64,000 nt of DNA, from NCBI GenBank assembly GCA_963793605.1, contig CAWCAH010000003.1, positions 95,534-159,533 on the forward strand, in the 5' to 3' direction. The position numbers and the translations under genes are program-made. Below are positions 3,473 through 54,404 of the stretch, one piece after another. Within the stretch, counting starts at the first letter, position 1, and every line of letters starts with the position of its first letter. The notes under the pieces were generated by a model. The model ran no database searches. It was not told the DNA's origin and was given only the letters and a program-made list of their open reading frames with translations. This stretch comes from an uncultured Thermoleophilia bacterium. GTDB taxonomy: Bacteria > Actinomycetota > Thermoleophilia > UBA2241.

Positions 3473-3871
3473 ATGGGCGACCTGAGCGACAGCAAGATCC
3501 GCGTGATCAAGGCCGACGAGATGATCTGGGAAGAGGCGATGACCAACCCGGAGGAGACCGACCCTCCCGGCCAGGAGTGCAACGCCGCCGTCTCGGTGGA
3601 CGACAGGTTCAGCTTCGGGCTCTGGAGGCGCGACGTGCAGCGGCGCCACTTCGAGCGGCCGTACCACGAGATCGCGTTCATCGTGGAGGGCGAGGTCGAA
3701 GTCACCGACGATGACGGCGACGTGCACGTGGCGGGTCCGGGGGACATCCTCATCACCCCCAAGGGCAGCAAGGGCTACTGGAAGAACCTCTCGCCGGTCA
3801 AGAAGGTGTGGGGCATCTACGAGGAGCCCGGCTCGGGCCTCAACGCGTACATCGGCCCCGGGGGGTTCTGA
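3473..3871 (+). CDS. Cupin domain protein (DUF861/EutQ-like)
   Basis: Corresponds to the last 132 aa of track ORF 1748..3871. ATG 3473 is preceded by AGGAGGGGG. The cupin barrel signature is HEIAFIVEGEVEVTDDDGDVHVAGPGDILITPKGSKGYW. Confidence 0.7.
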   Translation: MGDLSDSKIRVIKADEMIWEEAMTNPEETDPPGQECNAAVSVDDRFSFGLWRRDVQRRHFERPYHEIAFIVEGEVEVTDDDGDVHVAGPGDILITPKGSKGYWKNLSPVKKVWGIYEEPGSGLNAYIGPGGF

Positions 3872-9515: not shown

Positions 9516-9531
9516 CAAGTAGTACAACTTG
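9516..9531. promoter_or_regulatory. Imperfect 16-bp palindrome CAAGTAGTACAACTTG in an AT-rich patch upstream of hdrC
   Basis: Seen directly. Arms CAAGT/ACTTG surround a GTAC core, about 130 nt upstream of hdrC, in the lowest-GC patch of this spacer. Confidence 0.3.
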
Positions 9532-9663
9532 CCGCCGCGTCGAGTTGCCGCCCCCCGGGCGGCCCCCTACACTGAAGCTCGGGTCACTGTAGCCCCAAGA
9601 AGGCTGAAGGCAACTGGCGGAAAGGCGCACCCCTCCCGCCCGGTACGAAGGACACCCGCGCCT

Positions 9664-10206
9664 ATGACCACCACCACCACACGCACCCTGGCGGCCGAGA
9701 TCGAAGCGGCCACCGGGGTCAATCCCGCCACGTGTTACCAGTGTGGCAAGTGCTCGGCCGGATGCCCCATGGCCTCCGAGTCCGACCTGCGCCCCCACCA
9801 GGTGATGCGCAACGTGATGTACTCCTCGCGCGCCAAGACGCTGCGGGACGAGTCCATCTGGCTGTGCCTCACCTGCGAGACGTGCACCGCCCGCTGCCCC
9901 AACGCCTGCGATCCCGCACGCGTCATCGACGCCGTCCGCGAGATCGCCAACAACGAGGGCGTGGCCGTCAAGCCGCGCGCCATCGACGCCTTCCACAAGA
10001 CGTTCCTCGAGCAGGTGCGCGCCAACGGGCGCCTGTACGAGATGGGCCTGGTCATGGGCTTCAAGCTCCGCAGCCGCGCCTTCATGAGCGACGTCGAGAA
10101 CGCGCCCGGCATGTTGTCGCGCGGCAAGCTGGCGCTGCTGCCCCACCGCATCCAGGGCGTCGACGAGGTCAAGCGCATCTTCGACAAGTGCGGGGTGACG
10201 CCATGA
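9664..10206 (+). CDS. hdrC: Heterodisulfide reductase subunit C
   Basis: Two CxxCxxCxxxCP motifs (CYQCGKCSAGCP, CLTCETCTARCP). Position directly upstream of hdrB/hdrA. Confidence 0.85.
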   Translation: MTTTTTRTLAAEIEAATGVNPATCYQCGKCSAGCPMASESDLRPHQVMRNVMYSSRAKTLRDESIWLCLTCETCTARCPNACDPARVIDAVREIANNEGVAVKPRAIDAFHKTFLEQVRANGRLYEMGLVMGFKLRSRAFMSDVENAPGMLSRGKLALLPHRIQGVDEVKRIFDKCGVTP

Positions 10207-11306
10207 CCGCCGTCGCCGAGGCGCCCGCCGCCACGCAGAGCGCGCGCCAGACGTCCGCCATCGCCTACTACCCGGGTTGCTCCCTGCACGGCACCTCCCC
10301 GGAGTACGACGAGAGCCTGCGCGCCATCGCCCCCGCCATCGGCATCGCCCTGGCCGAGATCGCCGACTGGAGCTGCTGCGGAGCGAGCAGCGGCCACATC
10401 GTCAATCACGACCTGGCAGTGGCCCTGCCGGCGCGCAACCTCGCGCTCGCCGAGGCGCAGGGCTTCGACAAGGTCCTGGCGCCCTGCGCCGCCTGCTACA
10501 ACCGGCTGCTGGTCGCACACCAGACGCTGCAGGAGGACGCCGAGCTGGCCGGGCGCATGCCCGACATCCTCGGCCGCGACTTCGCCAACTCCGTCGACGT
10601 GCTCAGCGCGACGCAGTTGCTGCACGACGCGCGAGACGAGATCGCCGCGCGCGTCGCCGAGGGGCCCGTCGAGCGCAACCTGATGGGCGAGGTCAAGCTC
10701 GCCTCCTACTACGGCTGCCTGCTCGTGCGCCCGGCGTCGGTGGCCGGCGGCGACGACGTCGAGCAGCCGATGTTCATGGACGACGTGGTCGCCGCGTGCG
10801 GCGCCGATCCCGTCGACTGGAACATGAAGGTCGAGTGCTGCGGAGGCGCCTACGGCGTGAGCCGCACCTCCTCCGTCGTGCGGCTCGGCCGCGCGATCGT
10901 CGAGGACGCGCGCAGCAACGGCGCCGAGGCCATCGTCGTCGCCTGCCCGCTGTGCCAGACCAACCTGGACCTGCGGCAGAAGGCGATGGAGTCTCGCGGC
11001 GCCGCGCCGCTGCCCGTGCTCTTCATCACCGAGATCATCGGGCTGGCGCTGGGCGTCTCGCCCGACGAGCTCGGCATCAAGCGGCACTGGGTGGACGCGC
11101 AGCCGTGGCTGCGCGAGCTGCAGACGCGCGCGGACGAGCGTGCCGCCGCCGCGCGCAAGGCCGCCGAGGAGAAGGCCGCCAAGGCCGCCGCGCGGGCGGC
11201 CAAGGAGGCCGAGGCGGCCAAGAAGGCGGCCGCGCAAGGCCGAGCCCGAGGCAGCCGCCGCGGACGCAGGCTGCGACGCAAAAGCCGCGCCGGACGCCGG
11301 AGGTGA
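10203..11306 (+). CDS. hdrB: Heterodisulfide reductase subunit B (two CCG domains) with an Ala/Lys/Glu-rich C-terminal tail
   Basis: YYPGCSLHG...WSCCGAS and YYGCLLVRP...VECCGGA...ACPLCQTNLD are the duplicated CCG cysteine motifs. ATGA overlap with hdrC. The 3' end is uncertain (see finding at 11100-11313). Confidence 0.85.
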   Translation: MTAVAEAPAATQSARQTSAIAYYPGCSLHGTSPEYDESLRAIAPAIGIALAEIADWSCCGASSGHIVNHDLAVALPARNLALAEAQGFDKVLAPCAACYNRLLVAHQTLQEDAELAGRMPDILGRDFANSVDVLSATQLLHDARDEIAARVAEGPVERNLMGEVKLASYYGCLLVRPASVAGGDDVEQPMFMDDVVAACGADPVDWNMKVECCGGAYGVSRTSSVVRLGRAIVEDARSNGAEAIVVACPLCQTNLDLRQKAMESRGAAPLPVLFITEIIGLALGVSPDELGIKRHWVDAQPWLRELQTRADERAAAARKAAEEKAAKAAARAAKEAEAAKKAAAQGRARGSRRGRRLRRKSRAGRRR

Positions 11307-11309
11307 CGC

Positions 11310-13337
11310 ATGAGCCGCATCGGCGTCTTCGTCTGCCACTGCGGCGAGAACATCGCCCGCACCGTCGACTGCGCGGCCGTCGCCGAGGCCCTCAAGGACC
11401 ACCCCGGCGTCGCGCACTCCGAGGACTACAAGTACATGTGCTCGGACCCGGGTCAGGCCCTGGTCAAGAAGGCGATCGAGGAGAACAACCTCACCGGCGT
11501 CGTCATCGCCGCCTGCTCGCCGCACATGCACGAGAAGACCTTCCGCCGCGCGGTCGACCAGGCCGGCATGAACAAGTTCATGTGCGAGATGGCCAACATC
11601 CGCGAGCACTGCTCCTGGATCCACGAGGACAAGGAAGAGGCCACGGCCAAGGCCATCGACATCGGCCGCACGATCATCGAGAAGGTCAAGCACAACAAGC
11701 CGCTCGAGGTCATCAAGATCCCAGTGACCAAGCGCGCCATGGTCATCGGCGGCGGCATCGCCGGCATCCAGGCGGCGCTCGACATCGCCGACGGCGGTCA
11801 CGAGGTCGTGCTCATCGAGAAAGAGGCGTCCATCGGCGGCCACATGAGCCAGTTGAGCGAGACGTTCCCCACCCTCGACTGCTCGCAGTGCATCCTCACG
11901 CCGCGCATGGTCGAGGCGTACCAGCACCCCAACATCAAGCTCCACACCTGGAGCGAGGTCGAGAAGGTCGACGGCTACATCGGCAACTTCGAGGTCACCG
12001 TGCGCAAGAAGGCGCGCTCGGTGAACCAGGACCTCTGCAACGGCTGCGGCGACTGCATGGCCGTCTGCCCGTCCAAGAAGATCCCCAGCGAGTTCGACGC
12101 GGGGCTCAGCAACCGCACGGCGATCTACGTGCCGTTCCCGCAGGCGGTGCCCAACCAGCCGGTGCTCGACCGGCCCAACTGCAGCCTCTTCAAGGGCCGC
12201 GCCAAGGGCATCAAGAAGGACGCCTGCGGCAAGTGCAAAGAGGCCTGCCTCAAGGGCGCCATCGACTACGACACCGAGGACGAGTTCGTGAAGGAAGAGG
12301 TCGGGGCGATCGTCGTCGCCACCGGCTACAAGCTGTACGACATCGGCAAGGACCAGCCGGCCGGCCTCAAGGGCTACGGAGAGTACGGCTACGGCGAAGA
12401 CCCGGACATCATCGACGGCATGCAGTTCGAGCGCCTGGCATCGGCCAGCGGGCCGACGGCAGGCGCCATCCAGAGGCCGTCGGACGGCAAGGAGCCCAAG
12501 ACGGTGGTCTTCGTCCACTGCGTCGGCTCCCGCGACCCCGAGAAGGGCATGGCGTACTGCAGCAAGATCTGCTGCATGTACAACGCCAAGCACTCGATGC
12601 TGTACAAGCACAAGGTGCACGACGGGCGCGCGGTGGCCTTCTACATGGACATCCGCGCCAACGGCAAGGGCTACGACGAGTTCAGCCGCCGGGCGATCGA
12701 GGAGGACCGCGCCGAGTACATCCGCGGCCGCGTGAGCCGCATCTTCCGGGACGGCGACGTGCTCAAGGTGTGGGGCTTCGACACGCTGAGCGGCGAGCAG
12801 GTCGTCATCGACGCCGACATGGTGGTGCTGGCCACGGCCATCCGCCCCAACGACGGCGTCAAGGAGCTGGCACAGAAGCTCAGCTGCAGCGTCGACACCG
12901 ACGGGTTCATCAACGAGGCGCACCCCAAGCTGCGCCCCGTCGAGACCAACACCGCCGGCGTGTTCCTCGCCGGCGCCTGCCAGGCGCCGCGTGACATCCC
13001 GGACGCGGTGGCCATGGCCAGCGCCACCGGCGCCAAGGTCATGGCCCTGTTCAGCGCGGACGAGCTCGAGCGCGAGCCCGCCGTGGCCGTCGTCAACGAG
13101 CAGACCTGCATCGGTTGCATGCGCTGCGAGCTGGTGTGCCCCTACGGGGCCATCGAGCAGCGCGAGGTCTGCACCGTCGACGGCCAGGTCTGCGGCCACC
13201 TCGCCTACGTCAACCCGGGCGTGTGTCAGGGCTGCGGCACCTGCCAGGCCGTGTGTCTCAGCAAGAGCGTGGAGCTGCAGACGTTCACGGACGAGCAGAT
13301 CTTCAGTGAAATCCAAGCCCTCTGCGCGTGGGAGTGA
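11310..13337 (+). CDS. hdrA: Heterodisulfide reductase subunit A (FAD, Fe-S)
   Basis: 675 aa. N-terminal VFVCHCGENI cysteines, GGGIAGIQAALDIADGGHEVVLIEK dinucleotide fold, ferredoxin motifs CNGCGDCMAVCP and CIGCMRCELVCP, plus CQGCGTCQAVC. Confidence 0.93.
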   Translation: MSRIGVFVCHCGENIARTVDCAAVAEALKDHPGVAHSEDYKYMCSDPGQALVKKAIEENNLTGVVIAACSPHMHEKTFRRAVDQAGMNKFMCEMANIREHCSWIHEDKEEATAKAIDIGRTIIEKVKHNKPLEVIKIPVTKRAMVIGGGIAGIQAALDIADGGHEVVLIEKEASIGGHMSQLSETFPTLDCSQCILTPRMVEAYQHPNIKLHTWSEVEKVDGYIGNFEVTVRKKARSVNQDLCNGCGDCMAVCPSKKIPSEFDAGLSNRTAIYVPFPQAVPNQPVLDRPNCSLFKGRAKGIKKDACGKCKEACLKGAIDYDTEDEFVKEEVGAIVVATGYKLYDIGKDQPAGLKGYGEYGYGEDPDIIDGMQFERLASASGPTAGAIQRPSDGKEPKTVVFVHCVGSRDPEKGMAYCSKICCMYNAKHSMLYKHKVHDGRAVAFYMDIRANGKGYDEFSRRAIEEDRAEYIRGRVSRIFRDGDVLKVWGFDTLSGEQVVIDADMVVLATAIRPNDGVKELAQKLSCSVDTDGFINEAHPKLRPVETNTAGVFLAGACQAPRDIPDAVAMASATGAKVMALFSADELEREPAVAVVNEQTCIGCMRCELVCPYGAIEQREVCTVDGQVCGHLAYVNPGVCQGCGTCQAVCLSKSVELQTFTDEQIFSEIQALCAWE

Positions 13338-13339
13338 CG

Positions 13340-13846
13340 ATGACCGACTTCGAACCGCGCATCACCGCCTTCGTCTGCAACTGGTGCACCTACACCGGCG
13401 CCGACCTCGCCGGCACCAGCCGCCTGCACATGGCGAGCAACGTGCGCATCATCCGGCTGCCCTGCACGGGCCGCATCGACCCGCTGTTCATCGTCAAGGC
13501 GTTCGAGCGCGGCGCCGACGGCGTCATCGTCAGCGGCTGCCACCCGGCCGACTGCCACTACACGTCGGGCAACTACCACGCCCGGCGGCGGTTCGCCGTG
13601 TTCCACGACATCATGGAGTTCCTCGGCGTCGACCCGCGGCGCATGACCTTCAGCTGGGTCTCCGCCAGCGAGGGCGCCAAGTGGAAGGACGTCGTCAACG
13701 AGGCCGTGGCCAACGTCCGCGAGCTCGGGCCGTTCGAGGCGTACCGGGCGCTGGCGCCCGACGCCGTGGAGCCGTGGCCGGCCGCCACCGACGGCCTGGC
13801 GGCAGCCGGCGTCCCGGCTCCCGCCACCGAGGAGGTGGCGTCATGA
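13340..13846 (+). CDS. mvhD: MvhD/FlxD-like methyl-viologen-reducing hydrogenase delta subunit homolog
   Basis: ITAFVCNWCTY...IRLPCTGRIDPLFIVKAFERGADGVIVSGCHPADCHY is the MvhD signature. Lies immediately after hdrA. Confidence 0.88.
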   Translation: MTDFEPRITAFVCNWCTYTGADLAGTSRLHMASNVRIIRLPCTGRIDPLFIVKAFERGADGVIVSGCHPADCHYTSGNYHARRRFAVFHDIMEFLGVDPRRMTFSWVSASEGAKWKDVVNEAVANVRELGPFEAYRALAPDAVEPWPAATDGLAAAGVPAPATEEVAS

Positions 13847-14760
13847 CGGAAGTCGCCATCGCCCCGGCCTACGCCGGCGTCGAAGACCTCCGGCGCGTCG
13901 CCGCCGAGCTGCTCGAGAAGGGCGAGGTCCGCGTCATCGTCGGCTGGGAGGACGCCCGCAGGGGCGCCCGGCCGGTCTTCGTGACCGACCCGGCCCAGAC
14001 CGACAAGCTCATCTTCGACACGCGCTGTGTGCACAACCTCGTGACGTACCTGAACCCGCGCCGCGACCACGTCTCCGAGTTGGGCAAGATCGGGCTGGTC
14101 GTCAAGGGCTGTGACGTCAAGGCCGTCGCGGGGCTGCTGCGCGAGGCGCAGCTCGGCCGCGACCACGTGGTGCTCATCGGCGTGCGCTGCGGCGGCGTGC
14201 TCGAGGAGAACGAGCTCCCCGAGCCGCTGGCGCTCACGCCCGAGAACGTCGCGCCGCGCTGCTACGGCTGCGACAACCGCGAGCCGGCCCTGACGGACCA
14301 CCTCGTCGGCGAGTCGCAGCCGGAGCCCCCGCGGCCGGTCATGACCATCGACGAACGGGTCGCCGCCCTCGACGGTCAGTCGCTGGAGGAGCGCTGGGCG
14401 TTCTGGACCGACCAGTTCAGCAAGTGCGTGCGCTGCTACGCCTGCCGCCAGGTCTGCCCGCTGTGTATCTGCGAGCGCTGCATCGTCGAGAAGACGCAGC
14501 CGCAGTGGATCGACGCGTCCGCCCACCCGCGCGGCAACTTCAGCTGGAACCTCACGCGGGCCATCCACCTCGCCGGGCGCTGTGTGGACTGCGGCGAGTG
14601 CGAGCGCTTCTGCCCCGTCGGCATCCCGCTGAGCCTCCTCAACAAGAAGCTCCAGCACATCGTCAAGGAGCGCTACGACTACACCGTCTCCGATGACCCC
14701 GAGGTCCCGGCGCCGATCGGCGACTACCGCCTCGACGACCAGCAGGAGTTCATCAAGTGA
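13843..14760 (+). CDS. 4Fe-4S cluster protein, FlxC-like
   Basis: ATGA overlap with mvhD. Cysteine motifs CVRCYACRQVCPLCIC and CVDCGECERFCPVG. Confidence 0.7.
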   Translation: MTEVAIAPAYAGVEDLRRVAAELLEKGEVRVIVGWEDARRGARPVFVTDPAQTDKLIFDTRCVHNLVTYLNPRRDHVSELGKIGLVVKGCDVKAVAGLLREAQLGRDHVVLIGVRCGGVLEENELPEPLALTPENVAPRCYGCDNREPALTDHLVGESQPEPPRPVMTIDERVAALDGQSLEERWAFWTDQFSKCVRCYACRQVCPLCICERCIVEKTQPQWIDASAHPRGNFSWNLTRAIHLAGRCVDCGECERFCPVGIPLSLLNKKLQHIVKERYDYTVSDDPEVPAPIGDYRLDDQQEFIK

Positions 14761-15901
14761 GTACCTCCGCTCCTTCATCTCAGAGAGCGACCTGCGCGGG
14801 CTCGCCGCCGACCTGCTCGGCGCGGGCACCGGCGTCGTCGCGCCCGTCGCCACCGACATCTGCCAGTCGCCGGCGGCCGTCGCCGCCACGGCCTGCAGCC
14901 TCGACCACTCGCTGGTCACCATCGACTACAGCGCCATCACCTCGGCCGACGAGATGGACCTCTCGCGCGCTCTGCCGCAGCTCTCGCTCAAGCAGTTCTT
15001 CCTGCCCGAGCACGAGGCGCTGTGCCGCTGGAAGCAGAGGGGCACCACGTTCGAGGTCGAGGAAGTGCCGACCGAGTTCGCCCCGCGCGTCGTCCTGGGC
15101 GCCAAGCCCTGCGACGCGGCCGCGCTCGCGGTCGTCGACAAGGTCATGAACTGGGACTACGAGGACGAGCTGTGGAACGGCCGCCGCGCCGCCACGACGG
15201 TCATCAACCTCACCTGCCCCATGATCGACGACAGCTGCTTCTGCACGGCCGTCGGGGCGGCGCCGGACGACGTCAAGGGCGCCGACGGCCTGCTCACGCC
15301 GGTCGACGGCGGCTACGTGTACGAGCCGGCGACCGACAAGGGCAAGGCCCTGGTCGAAGGCCACAAGGCGCGCTTCACCGCCGACGTGCCGGCCGACACC
15401 CTCGGCCGCCAGGCCGACGACGAGCGGGCGGCGGCGCGCGAGCGCGTCGCCGGCAACCTGGAGATCGACGCGGCCAGCGTGCGCGACTGGATCGACACGC
15501 ACTTCGAGGACCCGCTCCTGACGCAGCTCGCCATGCGCTGCAACGGCTGCGGCGCCTGCACGGGCGTCTGCCCCACCTGCCACTGCTTCGACATCGTGGA
15601 CGAGGAGGAGGGCGTCGGCCGCGGCACCCGCCGGCGCTGCTGGGACACCTGCCAGTCGCCGGTGTTCACGCTGCACGCCAGCGGTCACAACCCGCGCGAC
15701 AACCAGCACGTGCGCTACCGCCAGCGCATCAACCACAAGTTCGCCGTGTACCCGCTCAAGTTCGGCGAAGTGCTCTGCACCGGCTGCGGCCGCTGCACCC
15801 GGGTGTGTCACGCGGGTCAGGACCTCGTCGAGATCCTGCAGGCCATCGACATCGCCGCCCGCCGACCCCGAGACGCCGAGCCCGCGGAGGCCGCCTCGTG
15901 A
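14693..15901 (+). CDS. AsrA/FlxB-like 4Fe-4S protein; start uncertain
   Basis: CNGCGACTGVCPTCHCFD and CTGCGRCTRVCHAG motifs. The conserved N-terminus seems to begin near 14762 (YLRSFISESDLRGL). The only in-frame ATG is 14693, which gives a 68-nt overlap. GTG 14757 would fit if one base were missing. Confidence 0.65.
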   Translation: MTPRSRRRSATTASTTSRSSSSEYLRSFISESDLRGLAADLLGAGTGVVAPVATDICQSPAAVAATACSLDHSLVTIDYSAITSADEMDLSRALPQLSLKQFFLPEHEALCRWKQRGTTFEVEEVPTEFAPRVVLGAKPCDAAALAVVDKVMNWDYEDELWNGRRAATTVINLTCPMIDDSCFCTAVGAAPDDVKGADGLLTPVDGGYVYEPATDKGKALVEGHKARFTADVPADTLGRQADDERAAARERVAGNLEIDAASVRDWIDTHFEDPLLTQLAMRCNGCGACTGVCPTCHCFDIVDEEEGVGRGTRRRCWDTCQSPVFTLHASGHNPRDNQHVRYRQRINHKFAVYPLKFGEVLCTGCGRCTRVCHAGQDLVEILQAIDIAARRPRDAEPAEAAS

Positions 15902-22252: not shown

Positions 22253-23689
22253 TCAGGGCGCCGGCACCACCGCGTCGAGCTGCTCGACGATGCCCTCGGG
22301 CAGCGACGCGACCTCGTGCGTCGCCAGGAGCTCGAGCGCCCGCCGGCGCGCCTTCTCGGTCGCGTCCAGCGCGCCGCCCTCGGCCCAGCGGTCGTAGCTG
22401 GCGCGGTTCAGGATCTTGCCGCGCCACTGCTCCTCGCGCAGGTGCTTGCGCGTGTGCCGCTGGCCGAGATAGTCGCCGCCGGGGCCGACGGCCTTGAGCA
22501 CGTCGACGGCCAGCGTCTCGTCGTCGACCTCTATCGGCCTGAGCAGGTGCCGGTTGCGGCTGATGAACTCGGCCACCAGGACGACCTCGGCGAGGGAGCC
22601 GGAGAGGCCGAAGTCCATGTAGCCCACGTCATGGTTGAGGTTGGCGCCCAGCTGCATGGAGAGCTTGGTGATCTCGTCGGCCTCCATGCCCGCCTGGGCG
22701 TCCACCACCTGCGCGTCGGTGTGGCCGCTGAACCCCCAGTTGGGGATGTCCAGCCACTTGGCCATCTCGCACTCCAGCGCGTACGCGCGGATGAACTCCG
22801 GCGAGTTGTACGACGACTGCGACGTCGCCATGTCGAGCGTGTTGGGGCCCTGGCCGATGACGAACGGGGCCCCCGGCGCACGCAGCTGGTGCATCACCAG
22901 GCCGAACAGCGCCTCGGCGATACCGAGGGTGATCTGGCCGGGCGTTGTGATCGGCGCGGTGCCGCCGGCGACCGGCGACGGGCAGTACGTGGACGGCACG
23001 CCCTTGTCGGCGCAGAAGAGCAGCTTGTCGACCGTCTCGTAGGGGTGCTTGAGCGGCGTGACCGGCTGGTTGTACATGATGAAGTACGGCTTGTCGCGAA
23101 GCGCCTGCTCGCCGCCGCGGACGGCGCAGGCCATGCGCCACATGGGCTCTACGGTCTCGACGCCGCCGGCGGTCATCACGAGCGGCTTGGTGGTGGCCGG
23201 GATCATCGCGCGGAACTGCTTGGGGTAGGCCTCCTGCGCGTCCATGCCGTCCGGGTACGCGCCCGACATGACGAAGTCGAGCTCGGGCAGCGAGTCGCAG
23301 AGGCGGGCCGCCTCGGCCACGTCCGCCATCTTGCCGAGGCGGCGCTCCCCGGTCTCGAGGTCGTGCAGGTGCATGACGTCCGAGCCGTTGCCGAAGTAGC
23401 TGCGGCGACCACCGAGGTCCATGGCGGGCTCGCCGGCGCGGTCGTAGACCACGAAGCTCGCCGGCACGGACTCACGCGCCTGCTCGACGAGCGCGGCCGG
23501 CACGTGCACGAGGCCGTCCGCGTCCCTGGTACAGCCGCCGTCCAGCATCACCTGCTCGCCCTCTTCGTGGAGGACGATCATGCCCATCTCCGAGAGGATG
23601 CCGAGGGCCGCGTCGTAGATGCGCCGCTTCTGGTCCTCGTTGAGGAAGCTGACGCGCCCGGCGCCGATCTCCTTGCTGCTGTCTGCCAT
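22253..23689 (-). CDS. MttB-superfamily methyltransferase, non-pyrrolysine paralog (quaternary amine:corrinoid methyltransferase-like)
   Basis: ATG 23689 follows GGGAG. Collinear with the other MttB-family genes here. His occupies the position of the Pyl codon (NWGFSG-H-TDAQVVDAQAG). No internal stop. Confidence 0.85.
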   Translation of the reverse strand: MADSSKEIGAGRVSFLNEDQKRRIYDAALGILSEMGMIVLHEEGEQVMLDGGCTRDADGLVHVPAALVEQARESVPASFVVYDRAGEPAMDLGGRRSYFGNGSDVMHLHDLETGERRLGKMADVAEAARLCDSLPELDFVMSGAYPDGMDAQEAYPKQFRAMIPATTKPLVMTAGGVETVEPMWRMACAVRGGEQALRDKPYFIMYNQPVTPLKHPYETVDKLLFCADKGVPSTYCPSPVAGGTAPITTPGQITLGIAEALFGLVMHQLRAPGAPFVIGQGPNTLDMATSQSSYNSPEFIRAYALECEMAKWLDIPNWGFSGHTDAQVVDAQAGMEADEITKLSMQLGANLNHDVGYMDFGLSGSLAEVVLVAEFISRNRHLLRPIEVDDETLAVDVLKAVGPGGDYLGQRHTRKHLREEQWRGKILNRASYDRWAEGGALDATEKARRRALELLATHEVASLPEGIVEQLDAVVPAP

Positions 23690-23777
23690 GGTCACTCCCG
23701 GAGCGAGATTGCCGACGAGGCGGCCCCGGACTGCTGCGCCGGGGGCCGCCTCGCCGAACACTACACTGTTTGCGGAG

Positions 23778-25247
23778 CTACTTCACTCCGAGTTCGTTCT
23801 CCGCGGCAGCGATAATCGACTTAAGTTCTGCCGAGACGCCCTCCGGCAGCGGCTCCGGCTGGTGCGTCTCCAGGATCCGCCGGGCCTCGGCGAGCGAACG
23901 GTCGTACAGCGTGGTCGACCCGGCGGCGGTCCACTCCTCGCGGACCCGCCGGTCGATGAGCTTCGAGCTCGACTGCCCGCGCATACCGGCGTACGTGTCG
24001 TCGTGCGAGAGGAAGTCCTTGAAGGGACCGATCTCGGCGATGACGTCGACCGACAGCGTCGCGTCCGTGACCGGGATGCCCGGCACGGTGAACTTGACCA
24101 TGCGCGCGAACTCCGCGTCCATGACCAGCTGCGCGTAATCGATGGTGACGCCCGACTCCAGCATCCCCAGCCCGTAGATCAGGTTGGCCCCTGCCAACGC
24201 CGGCAGCAGGCTGGTGATCGTCTTCTCGTGACCGGATTGGGCGTCCGCCACTTTGGAGTCGCCCTACGCACCGGCCACCCAGCTGGGCAGCAGGTAGAAG
24301 CGCGCGAGGCAGGCGACCCCGGCCCCGATCATGCCGCACTCGGGGCTGCCGACCGAGGCGCTGGCGAAGCGCAGGTCCAGCGCGGTCGTCGATGAGCCGT
24401 AGATGACCGGCGCGCCCCTCTTCGTGAGCTGCGCCAGCGTGATGCCGCTGAGCACCTCGGCGTTGTGCGTGACGAGCGTGCCGGCGAGCGAGACGGGAGA
24501 GGAGCCGCCGGCCATCGCCATGCTGAGCACGTTGACGGGGATGCCGGCGCGAGCGCCCTCGATGATGATCTCGCAGGCGTCCTTGACCAGCTTGAGCGGG
24601 CTCACCGGGCAGGTGAGGAAGCTGAGGATCGGGCGGCGGCGCAGCTGCTCCCGCCCCCCGACGATGGCCGCGGCCATGTCGATCATCTTGCGCGCGCAGA
24701 AGCCGCTGAGCGGGCCGATGGTCGCGTGCTTGGTGGTGTTGCTGAAGATCGCCTCGGCGTTGTGCAGCGCGGCCGTCTCCGGCGGCGCGTCGTGGGCGCC
24801 GAGCGGCCGCTCGACCACGTCGATCTCCGGCAGTGCGTCGATGATCTTCGTACAGTCGGCGACGTCCTGCTTGCGGCTCTCGTGCAGCTCGCCGGTGTAC
24901 GGGTCGACGACCTGGATGCCCTCGCCGAAGTTGGTGAAGCCGACCCGGCCGTCCTCGAGCACGACGTCCCTGGCCGGGTCGCGACCGCACAGGACGACGG
25001 TGGAGGGCGCCGAGCGGAGGGCGTCCTCGACGAGGTGCGCCGGCAGGCGCACCACGTTCTGCTCGCCGTCGACCTCGGCGCCGGCCGCCGCGAAGATCTC
25101 ACGGGCCTCGTCGTCCTCGACGAAGACGCCCGTGCGCGACAGCACTTCGAGCGTCGCGCCGTGGATCTCCCGCAGCTCGTCCTCCGTGAACACCTCGAGC
25201 CTGAAACCGCCGCTCTTGCGCGCTCCCGCGCGCGGGTTCCTTCTCAT
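23778..25247 (-). CDS. mttB: Trimethylamine:corrinoid methyltransferase with an in-frame TAG (putative pyrrolysine) at codon 328
   Basis: Track ORFs 24264..25247 and 23778..24251 are in the same frame. They are separated by TAG (plus-strand cta, 24264-24266) plus 4 sense codons. Joined product is 489 aa: ...ARFYLLPSWVAGA-TAG-GDSKVADAQSGHEK.... GAGGAGG RBS before ATG 25247. Confidence 0.85.
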
Positions 25248-25469
25248 CTCGACCTCCTCACCAGTTTGCCGCCGGGCCGTCGGCCCGGCGGCCCATCCGA
25301 CCGCGGTGAGCGGTCAATGCCACCATCATGGGGCAGAAAGCCGCCGGCCGGCTCAGCAAAGGGCGCAGTCTCGCCGGCCGGCGGCCTCCTCATGGCGAGT
25401 GCGGCAGCGCCGCTCGCCGCCCGCCCGCGCTGGCCGGCGCGGACGGGATCTTCTGACGACTTCGGCCGC

Positions 25470-26096
25470 CTACCCCACCAGCTCCTTCGCCCGCTCCACC
25501 GCCATGCCGGCGTTGGCGCCGTAGCCGTCGGCGCCGATCTCCTCGGCCCAGGCGGCCGTGACCGGGGCGCCGCCGACCATCACCTTGACGCTCTCGCGCA
25601 GGCCGGACTCCTTGAGACGCGCGATCGTCTCGGCCATGTGCGGCAGGGTGGTCGTGAGCAGGGCGCTCATGCCGACGATCTGCGGCTGGTGCTCCCGCAC
25701 GGCGGCGACGAAGGCCTCGGCCGTGACCCCGGTGCCGAGGTTGACGACCGTGAAGCCGGCGCCCGAGAGCAGCATGCCGACGAGGTTCTTGCCGATGTCG
25801 TGCAGGTCGCCCTCGACGGTGCCGATGACGACGGTTCCGAAGCCCGAGCCCTCGCCCTCGGCCATCAGCGGGCGCAGCAGGTCGAGGCAGGCCTGCATCA
25901 CCCGCGCGCTGAGCAGCACCTCGGGGATGAAGCACTCGCCCTCGCGCATGCGCGCTCCGACGACGTCCATGCCCGGCAGGAGCGCCTCGTCGAGGATCTC
26001 GCGCGGCGCCGCGCCGCTCGCGACGAGCGCCTGCGTCATCGCCAGGGCGACGGCCTCGTTGCCGTCGATGATGGACTGCTTGAGCTGGTCTTTCAT
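25470..26096 (-). CDS. Corrinoid (B12-binding) protein of the methylamine methyltransferase system (MtbC/MttC-like)
   Basis: 208 aa. B12-binding-2 helical cap followed by the DxHxxG motif (GDLHDIGKN) and SALLTTT...VMVGGAPV. Sits between mtbB and mttB. TAG stop. Confidence 0.9.
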   Translation of the reverse strand: MKDQLKQSIIDGNEAVALAMTQALVASGAAPREILDEALLPGMDVVGARMREGECFIPEVLLSARVMQACLDLLRPLMAEGEGSGFGTVVIGTVEGDLHDIGKNLVGMLLSGAGFTVVNLGTGVTAEAFVAAVREHQPQIVGMSALLTTTLPHMAETIARLKESGLRESVKVMVGGAPVTAAWAEEIGADGYGANAGMAVERAKELVG

Positions 26097-26101
26097 GCCG
26101 A

Positions 26102-27496
26102 TCAGCCTCCCGCCGTGCGTTCCTTGAACTTCTCGACACTGTTGATCGGCACGTCCAGCACACGGGCGATGTTGAACTTCGCCTCGATCTGGTTGGCCTG
26201 CCACGGCTGGCTGATCGCGTAGCTGTGCACGCGACCGAACCCGTGCTCGTTGCGCACGTCGGTCATCACGACCGGGTCGGAGAGATCGAACGGTGTCACG
26301 CCGAGCTTGTCGGCGACGTACTGCTTGGCTTCCTTGAGGCGCATGCCCCGAGTCATCTGCATACGGGCAACCAGGTCTCCGGCTGCGCGAATACCGCCGA
26401 TGCTCGCGGCTTGTGCGTGGGCGTTGTGCATCCCGTGGGGATCGCCCGAGCCCACCTACAACCCGTCGACGTGCAGCAGTTCGACGAAGGACTTCGCCGC
26501 GCGGCAGACAGCGTCGGAAGGCAGATGGACGAACATCGGCACGCCGCCGACGCCCATACCGGCGTTGGGGTGCACGGGGATCGTCGCCACCTCCATGCAC
26601 GGCTTGATGAGAGCGATCGTGCGCGCCATGTTCCAGGCGAGCGACTTGCCCGTGTTGATGTTGACCACAGGGCCGAACATGGTGGCGCCGGCCTCCTGGG
26701 CCAGCAGCAGCTGGTCCTTGGGCCACAGGCCGGCGAGGCGCTTGCCGCCCCACTCGAGCTCACCGTGCATGCCGAGCACGAACTCGCCGGCCATGCCCAG
26801 CTCGACGCCCATGTCCGGGTACTTCTCGCGGATGATCTTGGTGGCGCGCAGGGCGGCGAGGAACTCCGGGTCGCCCGAGGCGCCGGTGGTGTCCCAGTCG
26901 AGCGCGTCGGCTCCGGCTTCCCACTGCGAGTCGGCGAGCTTGACCATGTCGACCACGGCCATCTCGATCGCTTCTTCCTCAGCCTCCCGGGCCTCGGCGA
27001 TCTTGCCGAGCGGGAGCAGCTCGTTCCAGTTGTCGCAGGGGCCGTCGGGCTTGGAGTAGAGGCCGAGGTTGGTCATGACGCCGTACTGCAGCGGCGCGAT
27101 GGTCGCGAGCTGGGCGTCGTGCATGTACTGCGCCTCATAGGCGAGGATCGTGCGTACGACCTTGAGTGAGTAGTCGCCGACGCAGAGCTCGAGCAGGTCG
27201 GCGCCCATCCACTGCTCGTAGCTCTGCAGGTCCTGGATGCGGGTCGCGTGCGTCTTCATGCCGGTGCCGTCGCAGCTGAGGACGATCTCCTCGCCGACGT
27301 CGACGCCGATGAAGCGCAGCGGCGACGCGTAGATCTCGAGCAGGTGGTCGATCTCGTCGTCGGTCAGCAGCGGCACCTTGGCGCGCTTGGCCGCCACCTC
27401 CGAGCCGGCGACGAGATCCGCCCGGATCTCACTGCGCGTCAGCTGCGTGAAGGTACCGTCGCCCATGCGGGTCGGTATCCTGGGCTCGTTCGTCAT
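26102..27496 (-). CDS. mtbB: Dimethylamine:corrinoid methyltransferase with an in-frame TAG (putative pyrrolysine) at codon 347
   Basis: Track ORFs 26456..27553 and 26102..26455 abut in the same frame, separated only by TAG (plus-strand cta, 26456-26458). Joined product is 464 aa: MTNEPRIPTRMGDG...NAGMGVGGVPMF...ELLHVDGL-TAG-VGSGDPHGMH...AAGDLVARMQMTRGMRLKEAKQYVADKLG. It is collinear with MtbB as I remember it. Confidence 0.88.
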
Positions 27497-27545
27497 GCGC
27501 TCCCTCCCAAAGCGTGCGCCGGCGCGCCGCAGGGCGCGCCGGTCA

Positions 27546-27565
27546 CTAATCAACCGGTCAATTAG
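27546..27565. promoter_or_regulatory. 20-bp palindromic operator CTAATCAACCGGTCAATTAG upstream of mtbB (candidate TetR site)
   Basis: 8/10 palindromic. 17/20 identical to the site at 44137-44156 next to the TetR gene. Lies 50 nt upstream of the mtbB ATG. Confidence 0.55.
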
Positions 27566-27605
27566 CTGCCACTACACCGCAGCGACGTGGCGAAGTCAAG
27601 CGCGG

Positions 27606-43380: not shown

Positions 43381-44061
43381 TCAGGTGTTCGCGCCTGCCC
43401 GGGTGACCTCGAAGCACTCCAGCATCTGCGCCAGCACGCGGTACGGGTTGGCCAGGTCGGTCTCCGGGTCGATGGCCGTCTGGATGGCGAGCCCGTCGAT
43501 CACGGCGCTGAGCAGTTGGGCCAGCCCGAGCAGGTCGGGGTCGGCAAGCCCCGCGGCGCCGTCCGGCACGCCCAGCCACTCGAGCTTCATCTTCCAGTAC
43601 CAGCGGTAGAGCATGGCCATCCGGCGACGAAGGGCCTCGTCCCGCAGCACGTGGGGCAGGAGCTCATAGAAGACCTGGAAGTCGTCGGCCCAGGCAGCCA
43701 TGCGCTGCATCTCCTCGACCAGGCGTGGAATGCGCTCTCCGGGAGCCACATCCTTCATCCGGTCGAGTGAGTCGAGATACTCGTCGTGGATGACGGAGTC
43801 GAGCGCGGCGGCGATGAGGCCAGCCTTGTTGTCGAAGTAGTAGGAGACCATGGCCTTGTTCTCGCCGGCGCGCTCGCTCACGAGCTTGAGCGTCAGCGCC
43901 TCGAACCCCTCGTCGGCGACGATCTCCTTGGCGGCGATGAGGAGATTGCGCGCGGTCTCGGGAAGCGAGGACAGAGGGTCTTCGAACGCAAAGGAGAGAT
44001 GATCGGTGAGGCGTACGTGACCATCGACGTCGACACTCCAGCCCCCCGGCGGTGGCGCCAT
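43381..44061 (-). CDS. TetR/AcrR family transcriptional regulator
   Basis: 226 aa. LIAAKEIVADEGFEALTLKLVSERAGENKAMVSYYFDNKAGL is the TetR HTH. Confidence 0.85.
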   Translation of the reverse strand: MAPPPGGWSVDVDGHVRLTDHLSFAFEDPLSSLPETARNLLIAAKEIVADEGFEALTLKLVSERAGENKAMVSYYFDNKAGLIAAALDSVIHDEYLDSLDRMKDVAPGERIPRLVEEMQRMAAWADDFQVFYELLPHVLRDEALRRRMAMLYRWYWKMKLEWLGVPDGAAGLADPDLLGLAQLLSAVIDGLAIQTAIDPETDLANPYRVLAQMLECFEVTRAGANT

Positions 44062-44136
44062 GTCCCCTCACCTCCCCTGATGCCGGCGCAGCGCATGCGA
44101 CCGGCTTGACATGCCGCTCCGGTCGCGATGCAATCA

Positions 44137-44156
44137 CTGATTGACCGGTCGATTAG
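44137..44156. promoter_or_regulatory. 20-bp palindromic operator CTGATTGACCGGTCGATTAG in the TetR / AOR divergent spacer
   Basis: 8/10 palindromic around ACCGGT. Lies between the TetR start (44061) and the AOR start (44226). 17/20 identical to 27546-27565. Confidence 0.6.
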
Positions 44157-44225
44157 CGACGCGACAGTCTAGCATGAGGCCCGGGCGAGCACCACGGTCC
44201 GGGCTCTGTCGTCTGAAGGAGGACC

Positions 44226-46002
44226 GTGGACTTCTACACAGGACGCGTGCTGCGACTCGACCTGACCGCCCTGGCGGCGACGGTCGAGCCGCTGCCCGAC
44301 GACTGGGCCCGCCTGTACGTCGGCGGCAAGGGCCTCCTGCTCCGCTATCTCTTCGAGGAGCTCGCGCCGGGCGCCGATGCGCTCGCGCCGGGCAATCCGC
44401 TCATCCTCGCCACCGGCCCGTTCGCCGGGACCGCGGTGGCGACGTGCTCGCGCCTCGCCGTCGGTTGCAAGAGCCCGGCCACCGGGACGCTGCTCGACTC
44501 CTACGTCGGCGGGTCGTTCGCCCCGGAGCTCAAGTTCGCCGGGTACGACCTGGTGATCGTCACCGGCAAGGCTCCGCACCCGGTGCTCGTGCTCGTCGAG
44601 GACGACCGGGTGGAGTTCCTGCCGGCGGAGGGCCGCTTCTGGGGTCTGGAGACGGCGGCCCTCGAGCAGAAGATCCGCGAGGAGATGGGCCCGTGGCACA
44701 AGGTCCTCTCCACGGGCCCCGCCGGCGAGCAGCTCATCCCCTTCGCCTGCCTCTCTACCGACCAGTACCACAAGGCCGGGCGCGGCGGCGCCGGAGCGGT
44801 GATGGGCAGCAAGAACCTCAAGGCGGTCGTCGTGCGCGGCACGGGCGCCGTCAGCGTCGGCGACCACAAGGCCTTCTCGCGCGACGTCCTGACCCTGCAG
44901 AACGAGCGCGTCCTCACCCCGGACAACGCCTGGACGTGGGAGGAGGGCACGCCGTACCTCGTCGAGCTCGTCAACACGGCCGGCGCCCTGCCCACGCACA
45001 ACTGGCGCTCAGGGCAGTTCGACCAGGCCCCTGGGCTCCAGTCCGCGGAACTGCAGCGTGTGCGTACCAAGATCCGCGCCTGCACGCAATGTCCGCTCGC
45101 CTGCCGGCAGGTGCATCAGTTCGGCGACCGCGTCTGCGAGGGCCCCGAGTTCGAGACCCTCGGTCTCTGCGGCGCCAACTGCGGCATCGGCGACCTCGCG
45201 ACCGTCGCCTCCTTCAACGAGGCGTGCGACGAGCTGGGGCTGGACACGATCTCCACCGGCGCCGTGGTCGGCCTCGCGATGGACCTGTGCGAGCGGGGCA
45301 TGGCCGACTACGGCCTCGCCTTCGGCGACGCCGAGGGCTACCTCGCCGCGCCGGGGATGATCGCGCGGCGAGAGGGCTGGGGCGCCGAGTTGGCGCTCGG
45401 CACCCGCGACCTCGCCGCGCTCAAGGGCCGGCCGGACCTCGCCCCCCACATCAAGGGGCTCGAACTGCCGGCCTACGACCCCCGCGGCACCTACGGCATG
45501 GGGCTCGGCTACGCCACCTCAGACCGCGGCGCCTGCCACATGCGCGCCTTCACCGCCGGCGACGACATCCTCGGCGGCGAGGCGCCGGCCGACTCTCTGG
45601 AGGGCAAGCCGGCGCTCACCGTCGAGCAGCAGGACTTCAGCGCGCTCGCGTGGACCGGCGTGATGTGCGCGAACATGTGCGATCGACACCGACTTCCTGA
45701 GCGTGCTGTTCGGGCACCTCTGGGGGCGGCAGACGGACCATGACGAGCTCATGACCGTGGGCGCCAGGATCTGGAACCTGGGCCGCCTCCTCAACCTCCG
45801 CGAGGGCCTCTCGCGCGCGGACGACCGGCTGCCGGACATCCTGGACGTCCCACATCCGGACGGCGCGGCGGCCGGCAAGGCGATCACGCGCGAGGAGTTC
45901 CGCGCCGCGCTCGACGAGTACTACCGTCTGCGCGGCTGGGACGCGGCCGGCGTCCCCGAGGAGAGCACGCTCGCGCGCCTCTCGGTCGACGTGCGGATCT
46001 AG
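44226..46002 (+). CDS. aor: Aldehyde:ferredoxin oxidoreductase (tungstopterin AOR family); one frame break near 45681
   Basis: GRVLRLDLT...YVGGKGL, GPFAGT, KSPATG, HKAGRGGAGAVMGSKNLKAVVV, CTQCPLACRQV and DRGACHMRAF are followed, in another frame, by IDTDFLSVLFG...GARIWNLGRLLNLREG...LRGWD. TAG stop. Confidence 0.85.
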
Positions 46003-46052: not shown

Positions 46053-47204
46053 ATGACGTCCGCCGACGAGGTCGTCCGGAGGCAGCCAGGGCGGGGCGCC
46101 GAGCGCTTCGAGATCGCGCCCGGTGCGGCGACGATGCTCGCCGTCGTGACCACCGGCAACGGCGGGCTGGACCGGCTCGACTGGCGAGAGGTCCCGCGGC
46201 CCCGGCCGGACGAGGGCGAGGCCCTCGTCCGGGTGCTGGCCGCGGGCGTCAACACCACCGAGATCAACACCCGCCTTGGCTGGTACTCGGCCGCCGTGGA
46301 GAACGGCACCGCACAGACTGCTGAGCTGCAGGAGGCCCGCGCGACCGAACGGCCGGACGGCGGCTGGGATGCCCCGACGCCGTTCCCGTTCATCCAGGGC
46401 ACCGACTGCTGCGGCCTGGTCGCCGAGGTCGGCGCCGGCTGCGACCCCGGCCTCGTGGGGCGCCGCGTCCTCGTCCGCCCCTGCATGCGGCCCCTGGGCT
46501 TCGCGTCGCCGGACACTGTGTGGATGGGCTCCGACTTCGACGGCGCCTTCGCCCAATTCGTGCGCGTCCCCGCATCCGAGGTCTTTCCGGTGATCAGCTC
46601 CCTGACCGACGCCGAGCTGGGCGCCGTCCCCTGCGCCTACGGGACCGCCGAGAACATGGTGGCCCGGGCCGGCGTCCGGCCCGGGCAGCACGTGGTGGTC
46701 ACCGGCGCCTCCGGCGGCGTCGGGTCCGCCGCCGTGCAGCTCGCGCGGCTGCGCGGCGCGGAGGTCACGGCGGTGGCGGGCGCGGGCAAGGCCGAGCGTG
46801 TGCTGGCGCTCGGCGCGACCCGGGTCGTCGACCGGGACGAGCGTCTGTCCGACGCCCTCGGGGAGGGAACGGTCGACGCGGTCGTCGACAACGTCTCCGG
46901 GCCCGGCCTCGACGACCTCCTCTCGACCCTGCGCCGGGGCGGCTGCTACGTCTCGTCCGGCGCGATCGCCGGCCCTGTGGTCAGCTTCGACAAGCGGGTG
47001 TTCTACCTCCACGACCTCAAGCTCATCGGCTGCACGGCGTGGGACGAGCCGGTGTTCCCCGCCCTGATAGCCCGCATCGAGGCGGGCGAGCTGCGCCCCG
47101 TGGTCGCGGCGACGTTCCCGCTGGAGCGGATCGCGGAGGCGCAGACGGAGTTCCTCGAGAAGCGGCACGTGGGCAAGTACGTGCTCGTCCCGCCCGCCGG
47201 CTGA
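46053..47204 (+). CDS. Medium-chain (zinc-type) alcohol dehydrogenase / quinone oxidoreductase family protein
   Basis: 383 aa. VLVRVLAAGVNTTE, VVVTGASGGVGSAAVQLARLRGAEV. ATG 46053 follows GGAGGGGGAG. ATG 46134 (MLAVVTTG) is an alternative start. Confidence 0.8.
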   Translation: MTSADEVVRRQPGRGAERFEIAPGAATMLAVVTTGNGGLDRLDWREVPRPRPDEGEALVRVLAAGVNTTEINTRLGWYSAAVENGTAQTAELQEARATERPDGGWDAPTPFPFIQGTDCCGLVAEVGAGCDPGLVGRRVLVRPCMRPLGFASPDTVWMGSDFDGAFAQFVRVPASEVFPVISSLTDAELGAVPCAYGTAENMVARAGVRPGQHVVVTGASGGVGSAAVQLARLRGAEVTAVAGAGKAERVLALGATRVVDRDERLSDALGEGTVDAVVDNVSGPGLDDLLSTLRRGGCYVSSGAIAGPVVSFDKRVFYLHDLKLIGCTAWDEPVFPALIARIEAGELRPVVAATFPLERIAEAQTEFLEKRHVGKYVLVPPAG

Positions 47205-49021: not shown

Positions 49022-49051
49022 TGGTATGTACCAGTCGTCTGGTATGTACCA
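49022..49051. promoter_or_regulatory. Tandem pair of the 12-bp palindrome TGGTATGTACCA (49022-49033 and 49040-49051) in the glpD / FAD-oxidoreductase divergent spacer
   Basis: Exact direct duplication separated by 6 nt. The reverse complement TGGTACATACCA recurs at 51405-51416, upstream of the HutC-type GntR gene. Confidence 0.6.
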
Positions 49052-51404: not shown

Positions 51405-51416
51405 TGGTACATACCA
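51405..51416. promoter_or_regulatory. TGGTACATACCA palindrome upstream of the HutC-type GntR gene
   Basis: Exact reverse complement of the 49022/49040 repeat, 90 nt upstream of GTG 51315. Confidence 0.55.
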
Positions 51417-51583
51417 CGGACTCCGGCGAACCTGCATATCGCATTGCTACTGTGGGGGACGGAACGCACATCTAGTGTTCTCTCGCGGCAGAGCGACGCA
51501 GAAAATGCCGTCCTTGCGCGTCTTGAGAGAATATATGCGAACCCAAACGGGTGCCCGCAACTAACTGAGCGGTCAATTCGCTC

Positions 51584-51612
51584 TTGCCAACCGCTGCCGC
51601 CGTGTGTATTGT
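51584..51612 (+). promoter_or_regulatory. Candidate sigma-70-type promoter TTGCCA-N17-TATTGT for the ABC transporter operon
   Basis: Hexamers at 51584-51589 and 51607-51612 with a 17-nt spacer, about 90 nt upstream of ATG 51702 in a low-GC spacer. Pattern match only. Confidence 0.35.
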
Positions 51613-53405: not shown

Positions 53406-53452
53406 GGTAGGAACGGTACCGAGATAGACAGGCTGACGTAGGGACTCCCGGG

Positions 53453-54403: not shown

Positions 54404-54404
54404 C

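Follow-up and report, generated by a model that had tools for sequence, protein, structure and literature searches.

A pyrrolysine-dependent methylamine locus with a recurrent palindromic box

The stretch analysed here (the window, 64,000 nt, GC content 70%) comes from an uncultured bacterium of the Thermoleophilia and contains a methylamine methyltransferase cluster headed by mtbB, a gene for a TetR-family regulator with an aldehyde:ferredoxin oxidoreductase-family gene (AOR) as its divergent neighbor, and an operon for an Opp/Dpp-type ABC transporter. A 20-bp palindromic box was found in front of mtbB, between the TetR gene and AOR, and, in a degenerate form, in front of the transporter operon (Table 1). 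Gene calls were based on the GC content at third codon positions (GC3), protein families were assigned with Pfam and NCBIfam, and the lettering of the boxes was checked against their coordinates. The positions that the initial annotation had given for the three 20-mers are correct on re-reading the window, and so is its description of their surroundings. The mtbB gene starts with an ATG at 27496 on the minus strand, preceded by GGGAGGGAG, and box 1 precedes this codon by 50 nt. Box 2 separates the start codons of the TetR gene (ATG, 44061, minus strand) and AOR (GTG, 44226, plus strand). Both boxes are self-complementary at 8 of 10 positions around ACCGGT and preceded by TCA. Its count of 17 shared positions out of 20 between boxes 1 and 2 had to be revised; they share 16 of 20 when read in the same direction and 18 of 20 when one of them is reverse-complemented.

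With up to three mismatches allowed, the degenerate pattern proposed in that annotation matches the window at only three places, and in 100 dinucleotide-preserving shuffles the mean number of matches was 0.00.

Table 1. Genes, putative operators, and promoter elements discussed in the text, in window coordinates.
Feature	Position	Strand	Remarks
Operator box 1 (O-mtbB), putative	27546-27565		CTAATCAACCGGTCAATTAG; in the mtbB reading direction CTAATTGACCGGTTGATTAG
Operator box 2 (O-tetR/AOR), putative	44137-44156		CTGATTGACCGGTCGATTAG; reading toward the TetR gene CTAATCGACCGGTCAATCAG
Operator box 3, degenerate, putative	51561-51580		CTAACTGAGCGGTCAATTCG; followed after 3 nt by the -35 of the ABC transporter promoter
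TetR-family regulator, 226 aa	43381-44061	minus	TetR_N and BetI-type C-terminal domain; proposed binder of the box
Proposed tetR extended -10	44166-44174	minus	TGcTAGACT, 9 nt from operator; conserved gTGcTAcAATg block; presumed site
Proposed AOR promoter	44106-44134	plus	-35 TTGACA 44106-44111, 17-nt spacer, -10 TGCAAT 44129-44134; operator 2 nt downstream
Proposed mtbB promoter	27571-27599	minus	-35 TTGACT 27599-27594, 17-nt spacer, -10-like TGTAGT 27576-27571; operator 5 nt downstream
ABC operon promoter-like site	51584-51612	plus	TTGCCA, 17-nt spacer, TATTGT; called by sigma-70 scan, conserved
mtbB, dimethylamine:corrinoid methyltransferase	26102-27496	minus	In-frame TAG (pyrrolysine) 26456-26458
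Corrinoid protein (MtbC/MtgC-like), 208 aa	25470-26096	minus
mttB, trimethylamine:corrinoid methyltransferase	23778-25247	minus	In-frame TAG 24264-24266
MttB-superfamily gene without pyrrolysine	22253-23761	minus	Last gene of the same-strand cluster; gene order same in relatives
Aldehyde:ferredoxin oxidoreductase-family gene (AOR)	44226-46002	plus	AFOR_N and AFOR_C matches on two open reading frames
MDR-superfamily gene (zinc-ADH/enoyl-reductase-like)	46053-47204	plus	Downstream of AOR
Opp/Dpp-type ABC transporter operon	51702-57594	plus	SBP_bac_5 binding protein, two permeases, fused double ATPase

Distribution of the box in bacterial genomes

The pattern CTRATYRACCGGTYRATYAG was searched for exactly in one genome per species of GTDB (185,579 species, 596 Gb), and the matching stretches were labelled by tblastn with the proteins of the window. 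The search yielded 68 stretches, 40 of which belong to 33 Thermoleophilia-type metagenome-assembled genomes (MAGs) with about 69% GC; these MAGs are labelled Thermoleophilia, Actinomycetes, or Actinomycetota, with the exception of L017, which is labelled Alphaproteobacteria. All 40 lineage matches fall into two contexts, 28 of them being located immediately upstream of mtbB and 12 in the TetR intergenic region, and at least 11 MAGs have the box at both mtbB and tetR. The other 28 matches come from various unrelated phyla, most having the form CTGATC...GATCAG, and their number is close to the approximately 35 matches estimated to arise by chance. When about 590 kb of related DNA was scanned with a position weight matrix (PWM), the only new context was the region between a GntR gene and the ABC transporter operon, in addition to three matches in unrelated taxa (L016, L018, and L065) that have no homologues of the window genes. 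A motif frequent throughout genomes irrespective of gene context, which the initial annotation had named as an observation that would speak against an operator, was not seen, since every lineage match sits at mtbB or in the TetR intergenic region. DNA nearly identical to the window is present in freshwater-sediment, wetland, rock, and soil metagenomes.

Two further occurrences were recorded. In a Solirubrobacterales MAG (L071, 1096-1127), the core recurs in an intergenic region, within a perfect palindrome of 32 bp, GGCAAGCTGATTGACCGGTCAATCAGCTTGCC; no homologues of the window genes lie around it, and a related regulator of this other lineage may use it as its operator. L039 has two identical boxes with identical flanks (3681-3700 and 3836-3855), spaced by 155 bp and separated by a run of N; this is probably a scaffolding duplication and not a true double operator.

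Linkage of the box to the TetR gene

The product of 43381-44061 contains a TetR_N domain (PF00440; E = 4.7e-9, 36.3 bits versus a cut-off of 24) and, as a marginal pass, a TetR_C_6 domain (PF13977; 28.9 bits versus a cut-off of 27) that is also an annotated domain in most of its homologues. Among 14 homologues with 67-93% identity, 15 of the 19 positions of the helix-turn-helix (HTH) segment RAGENKAM(V/I)(S/A)YYF.NKAGL are invariant, and this near-invariant recognition region matches the invariant core of the box, CGACCGGTC. A search of solved structures with the TetR sequence returned only distant, uncharacterised TetR proteins, the best with E = 2e-7.

Of 102 TetR loci, 101 have the box in front of the TetR gene, over protein identities of 62-95%: all 22 places in the first locus sets, and 79 of the 80 metagenome loci that were found by TetR alignment (62-87% identity). 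All eight loci retrieved with TetR homologues have it, and in the single locus that does not show it, only 106 nt of upstream sequence are present. The divergent neighbor of the TetR gene varies and can be AOR, HIBADH (with or without AOR), an MDR gene, a gene encoding a flavin adenine dinucleotide (FAD) oxidoreductase, mtbB, or, in L153, the ABC binding protein SBP5. The spacing between the mtbB box and the TetR box is not constant. It amounts to 16 kb in the window and to about 4 kb in two relatives, L002 and L007; in L154 and L157 it is zero, mtbB itself being directly divergent from the TetR gene there and the two genes having a single box in common. Because the TetR gene alone accompanies the box constantly, its product is the likely binder.

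Judged from these sequence comparisons, it is highly probable that CTAATYRACC/GGTYRATTAG (the slash marks the center of symmetry) is the operator of the BetI-like TetR repressor encoded at 43381-44061 and acts at three promoters.

Position of the box relative to conserved promoter elements

In 31 distinct mtbB upstream regions, 19 of the 20 columns of the box are conserved at 90% or more, as compared with 40-60% for the adjoining columns. The regions are built alike: cTTGACAt and a TGTAGT-like hexamer are separated by 17 nt, CTAATTGACCGGTtGATTAG follows about 5 nt later, and a variable leader of some 45 nt leads to GGGAGG and then to the start codon. The cTTGACAt block, itself conserved at 90% or more, together with the -10-like block at a fixed distance, was recognized in 30 of these 31 loci.

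The 18 distinct TetR regions show an extended -10 element, TGcTAcAAT, oriented toward tetR, followed after 6-10 nt by the box and after another 2-6 nt by CATTGCA. Read on the opposite strand, CATTGCA corresponds to the -10 hexamer TGCAAT, and GTCAAg, 17 nt further on, to the -35 hexamer TTGACA. With conserved blocks on both sides, a single box thus appears to follow closely on the -10 elements of two promoters, those of tetR and AOR, that face each other. At mtbB, AOR, and tetR, the box would therefore be situated 2-9 nt downstream of conserved -10 hexamers, a position that suits repression. The box is AT-rich within a genome of 70% GC and is conserved while its flanks diverge.

The third box and a separate GntR palindrome

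Box 3 is located between a gene encoding a GntR/UTRA regulator and the Opp-type ABC transporter operon. The initial annotation had described it as a degenerate copy abutting the -35 of this operon, and this was borne out, as the box is 3 nt from the called -35 and is conserved in relatives. In the GntR-ABC intergenic regions of five genomes, the block ACTAACTGAnnGGTCAATTC lies directly upstream of the conserved -35 TTGCCA, and more distant relatives (L139, L140, L144, L145, L150, and L153) carry a near-perfect box, GAGATTGACCGGTTAATTAG, at the same position. This same-position conservation indicates that box 3 is a conserved member of the regulon that has become degenerate in this genome.

A different palindrome of the GntR/HutC type, TGGTACATACCA, is located just upstream of the GntR gene (51405-51416) and, as a tandem pair 18 bp apart (49022-49033 and 49040-49051), between genes encoding an FAD oxidoreductase and a divergent DAO-like protein. 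Shuffled sequences are expected to contain 0.33 matches to it, and the same layout was found in 13 related loci. The TGGTACATACCA sites probably constitute a small regulon of GntR's own, and the site at 51405-51416 implies that the GntR start codon is downstream of the ATG at 51471.

The mtbB-mttB operon and its expression

Pfam Dimeth_Pyl matches both halves of MtbB, flanking profile position 354, a junction at which all 27 relatives (Thermoleophilia-type MAGs) have the in-frame TAG codon; that of mttB was likewise found in 21 of 21 such relatives. Both codons are at canonical pyrrolysine positions, and the Rfam elements PYLIS_2 (26359-26458) and PYLIS_3 (24167-24266), both on the minus strand, start at the TAG codons of mtbB and mttB, respectively. 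Neither the window nor 47 related loci yielded pylT or other pyl genes, and the only tRNA gene detected in them was a single tRNA-Gly in the related loci. PylRS has been reported in two Actinobacteria (PMC9630628).

The corrinoid gene (interval 25248-26101) is missing in many relatives, among them L032, L036, and L045, in which mtbB is followed directly by mttB, and contigs from metatranscriptomes show this shorter form as well, with position 25241 joined to 26102. In L007 (18985-20675), genes of the aromatic-amino-acid-lyase family (Lyase_aromatic) adjoin the mtbB/mttB cluster. The ergothioneine-degrading lyase, which releases trimethylamine (TMA), is a member of this family, and the L007 lyase is a possible local source of TMA.

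Contigs from sediment, ice, and soil metatranscriptomes are 85-99% identical to mtbB, mtbC, and mttB. Their depth drops upstream of about position 27520, and the alignment of one contig, from run X22 (labelled METAGENOMIC RNA-Seq, so that its RNA status is uncertain), ends at 27565, the outer edge of the box. This coverage agrees with a promoter at this place and gives it weak support, the contigs being too short and too divergent to map the transcription start.

A perfect GC-rich hairpin, CCGGCGCGCC-cugc-GGCGCGCCGG, is present in the mtbB leader (27511-27540, minus strand) between the operator and the ribosome-binding site, and many relatives have a different GC-rich hairpin at this place, in some cases followed by a U-rich run. 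A structured mtbB leader as such was not supported, since 31 leaders folded no better than shuffled sequences (mean z = -0.1).

The AOR/MDR pair and other redox genes

AOR is split into two open reading frames (44226-45743 and 45703-46002) by an additional base near 45681 relative to three relatives, and it is intact, with 591 aa, in L001, L005, L006, and L008. The frameshift could be either an assembly indel or a sign of a recent pseudogene; several other genes in related MAG loci are fragmented in the same way. The designation of this enzyme as tungsten-type in the initial annotation is taken from family membership only and is best read as provisional. The MDR gene probably belongs to the same operon as AOR, and the order AOR-MDR is conserved in relatives.

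A heterodisulfide-reductase-like cluster at 9529-15901 encodes HdrC-, HdrB-, and HdrA-like proteins, MvhD/FlpD, and a Fer4_22 protein. In combination with the presence of AOR and of corrinoid methyltransferases, it suggests that this actinobacterial lineage has an anaerobic, ferredoxin-based lifestyle.

Comparison with characterized regulators

The best NCBIfam match of the TetR protein is BetI (TIGR03384), with 42.5 bits against a cut-off of 201.3, followed by a weaker one to NF001978 (37.8 bits against a cut-off of 118); both are below the cut-off. For comparison, the E. coli BetI operator was taken from the betI-betT intergenic region of the E. coli genome, which contains TTGATTGGACGTTCAATATAA, a sequence that serves as the operator in engineered promoters repressed by BetI (PMC7058928). 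The operator cores, ATTGGAC/GTTCAAT in E. coli and ATTGACC/GGTCAAT in the window, agree at 11 of 14 positions, whereas the central four bases differ symmetrically. Both regulators combine a TetR_N HTH with a BetI-type TetR_C_6 C-terminal domain, and in both systems a divergent intergenic region holds one palindromic operator, through which BetI regulates itself and the window protein would do the same. BetI, the choline-responsive repressor of betT and betIBA, controls the uptake and metabolism of methylated ammonium compounds, and the regulon proposed here would do so as well. In contrast to BetI, the neighbors in the window include no betA, betB, or betT, their place being taken by AOR, MDR, MttB-family, HIBADH, and ABC transporter genes, and the predicted targets are pyrrolysine-dependent TMA and dimethylamine (DMA) methyltransferases, the AOR/MDR pair, and an Opp-type ABC transporter. 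From its sequence, the window protein is best described as BetI-like but not as BetI.

The operator also resembles that of RutR, the TetR-family regulator of pyrimidine catabolism in E. coli, which has the consensus TTGACCAnnTGGTCAA (PMC2475637). The half-sites TTGACC and GGTCAA are the same and RutR gives a weak NCBIfam match to the window protein; however, the half-sites abut here (TTGACC/GGTCAA) and are separated by AnnT in RutR, and the effector and regulon of RutR are unrelated. The likeness to both operators suggests that the box is a normal TetR-family operator of the BetI/RutR flavor. Type-I TetR repressors (TetR/tetA, QacR/qacA, and AcrR/acrAB) likewise have a divergent target, an operator over the promoter or transcription-start region, and autoregulation, but in the window the same box also stands at distal operons, at distances of 16 kb and 7 kb, and the predicted targets are catabolic enzymes and not an efflux pump. 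In Methanosarcina, methylamine methyltransferase genes are regulated by MreA (PMC3419521). MreA-like archaeal regulators also control mtb and mtt genes, but they belong to an unrelated, TrmB-like protein family and act at archaeal promoters.

Alternative explanations and strength of the evidence

The box could be a real operator that is bound by another regulator, such as the neighboring GntR/UTRA protein, one of the AsnC/Lrp proteins, or a factor encoded elsewhere, with the TetR gene being merely one of its targets. In favor of this, GntR and mtbB are divergent neighbors in L002, L003, and L037, a GntR gene adjoins box 3 in the window, and most mtbB loci have an AsnC gene next to mtbB. The box does not have the form TGGT-N4-ACCA expected of a GntR/HutC operator next to a GntR gene, a role that is filled by the GT..AC palindrome TGGTACATACCA, which is separate from the box; in L002 and L003, the two elements even stand side by side between GntR and mtbB. 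With its own conserved box, GntR was ruled out as the binder of the TetR-linked element, and the attribution to TetR and not to the local GntR protein was upheld. AsnC was ruled out because it is never found at the TetR/AOR site and is missing beside mtbB in L036, L041, L043, L051, L054, and L067, which keep the box. Since no gene other than the TetR gene accompanies the box throughout, we regard control by another regulator as improbable.

The palindrome might instead function as RNA: the mRNAs of mtbB and AOR could carry at their 5' ends a hairpin of 8 bp, closed by a CCGG loop, that affects their stability or binds a protein. The box is indeed at or just after the predicted transcription starts, and on the mtbB sense strand all departures from symmetry are G-U wobbles (56 G-U cells and 0 mismatches). 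This asymmetry rests on only about four independent changes, however, and the other strands conform to it poorly, with 28 G-U cells and 7 mismatches on the AOR sense strand, where mismatch events are as numerous as wobble events, and 29 mismatches on the tetR sense strand. The box hairpin is not part of the minimum-energy fold of the mtbB leader, leaders fold no better than shuffles (z = -1.85, -0.11, and +0.60), box 3 is upstream of its promoter -35 and thus outside that mRNA, and Rfam finds only the two PYLIS elements and no family at the boxes. A role as RNA is accordingly very unlikely in our judgment. Chance similarity, or a dispersed repeat like a repetitive extragenic palindrome (REP) or a miniature inverted-repeat transposable element (MITE) without regulatory meaning, has next to no probability. 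Short CCGG-centered palindromes are common in GC-rich DNA and 28 unrelated genomes also match the pattern, but the shuffles gave no match, the lineage matches are all in two promoter contexts, the PWM scan left only three matches in no known context, all in unrelated taxa, and the AT-rich box is conserved between diverging flanks in a genome of 70% GC.

Several observations weigh against an operator of the TetR protein at three promoters. A strict sigma-70 consensus scan called no promoter at box 1 or box 2. The AOR promoter was missed because its -10 has a G at position 2, and the positions of the mtbB, AOR, and tetR promoters were consequently derived from the conserved hexamers alone. The TetR protein is only 25-27% identical to E. 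coli BetI, and the resemblance of the operators is an analogy. Box 3 has 2-3 mismatches and by itself lacks statistical significance, since chance is expected to give 1.0 matches in the window to the 14-bp core at up to two mismatches, and its place upstream of the -35 is not the classic position for a repressor; we consider it real because of its conservation at the same position in other genomes and not because of its own statistics. The scan pattern was built from boxes 1 and 2 and therefore detects near-perfect copies only, leaving weaker members of the regulon invisible.

A proposed regulon for methylamine utilization

The contexts of the box, its linkage to the TetR gene, and the conserved third site support the proposal of the initial annotation that one TetR regulon joins the pyrrolysine-dependent methylamine operon with AOR, and extend it to the ABC transporter. 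In the mechanism we propose, a dimer of the TetR protein would bind the box at the tetR/AOR, mtbB-mtbC-mttB, and ABC transporter promoters; it would block initiation or early elongation at mtbB, AOR, and tetR and interfere with the -35 at the ABC promoter. A small ligand would release the protein, and uptake, pyrrolysine-dependent demethylation of TMA and DMA, and the AOR/MDR pair would be switched on together. Binding by the TetR protein, repression rather than activation, and the dimer stoichiometry are steps that we infer. The ligand would most plausibly be a methylated amine or a quaternary-amine precursor, because the protein has a BetI-type domain and the regulon comprises TMA/DMA methyltransferases, a corrinoid protein, and an uptake system.

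One possibility, suggested by the function of AOR and alcohol dehydrogenase (ADH) in acetogens, is that the AOR/MDR pair provides a ferredoxin-linked redox outlet for methyl-group oxidation, for example by carboxylate reduction. Going further, we tentatively suggest that the TetR protein might sense methylamines or a quaternary-amine precursor and co-induce uptake, pyrrolysine-dependent TMA/DMA demethylation, and an AOR/MDR pair that disposes of reducing power, in a widespread group of uncultured anaerobic Thermoleophilia; at present this picture is more doubtful than the operator assignment.

As a mechanism this would be ordinary, textbook TetR-type repression; the regulon was previously unannotated, and its interest lies in its targets and in its host, an uncultured actinomycetotal bacterium. 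The use of pyrrolysine in Actinomycetota has received only brief mention in the literature (two genomes; PMC9630628), and a limited literature search found no description of a bacterial regulator of pyrrolysine-dependent mtbB/mttB operons. Our findings suggest a concrete regulon for bacterial pyrrolysine-dependent methylamine utilization, with one repressor, one 20-bp operator, and three promoters. If the tentative picture of a methylamine-sensing TetR protein is true, this protein would be the first transcription factor assigned to pyrrolysine-enzyme operons in bacteria and, with its box, would offer a ready-made repressor/operator pair for methylamine biosensing. The conserved co-regulation of the AOR/MDR pair with the TMA/DMA methyltransferases would be a metabolic link outside current pathway schemes, which could consist in a coupling of methyl-group oxidation to the redox chemistry of aldehydes or carboxylates.

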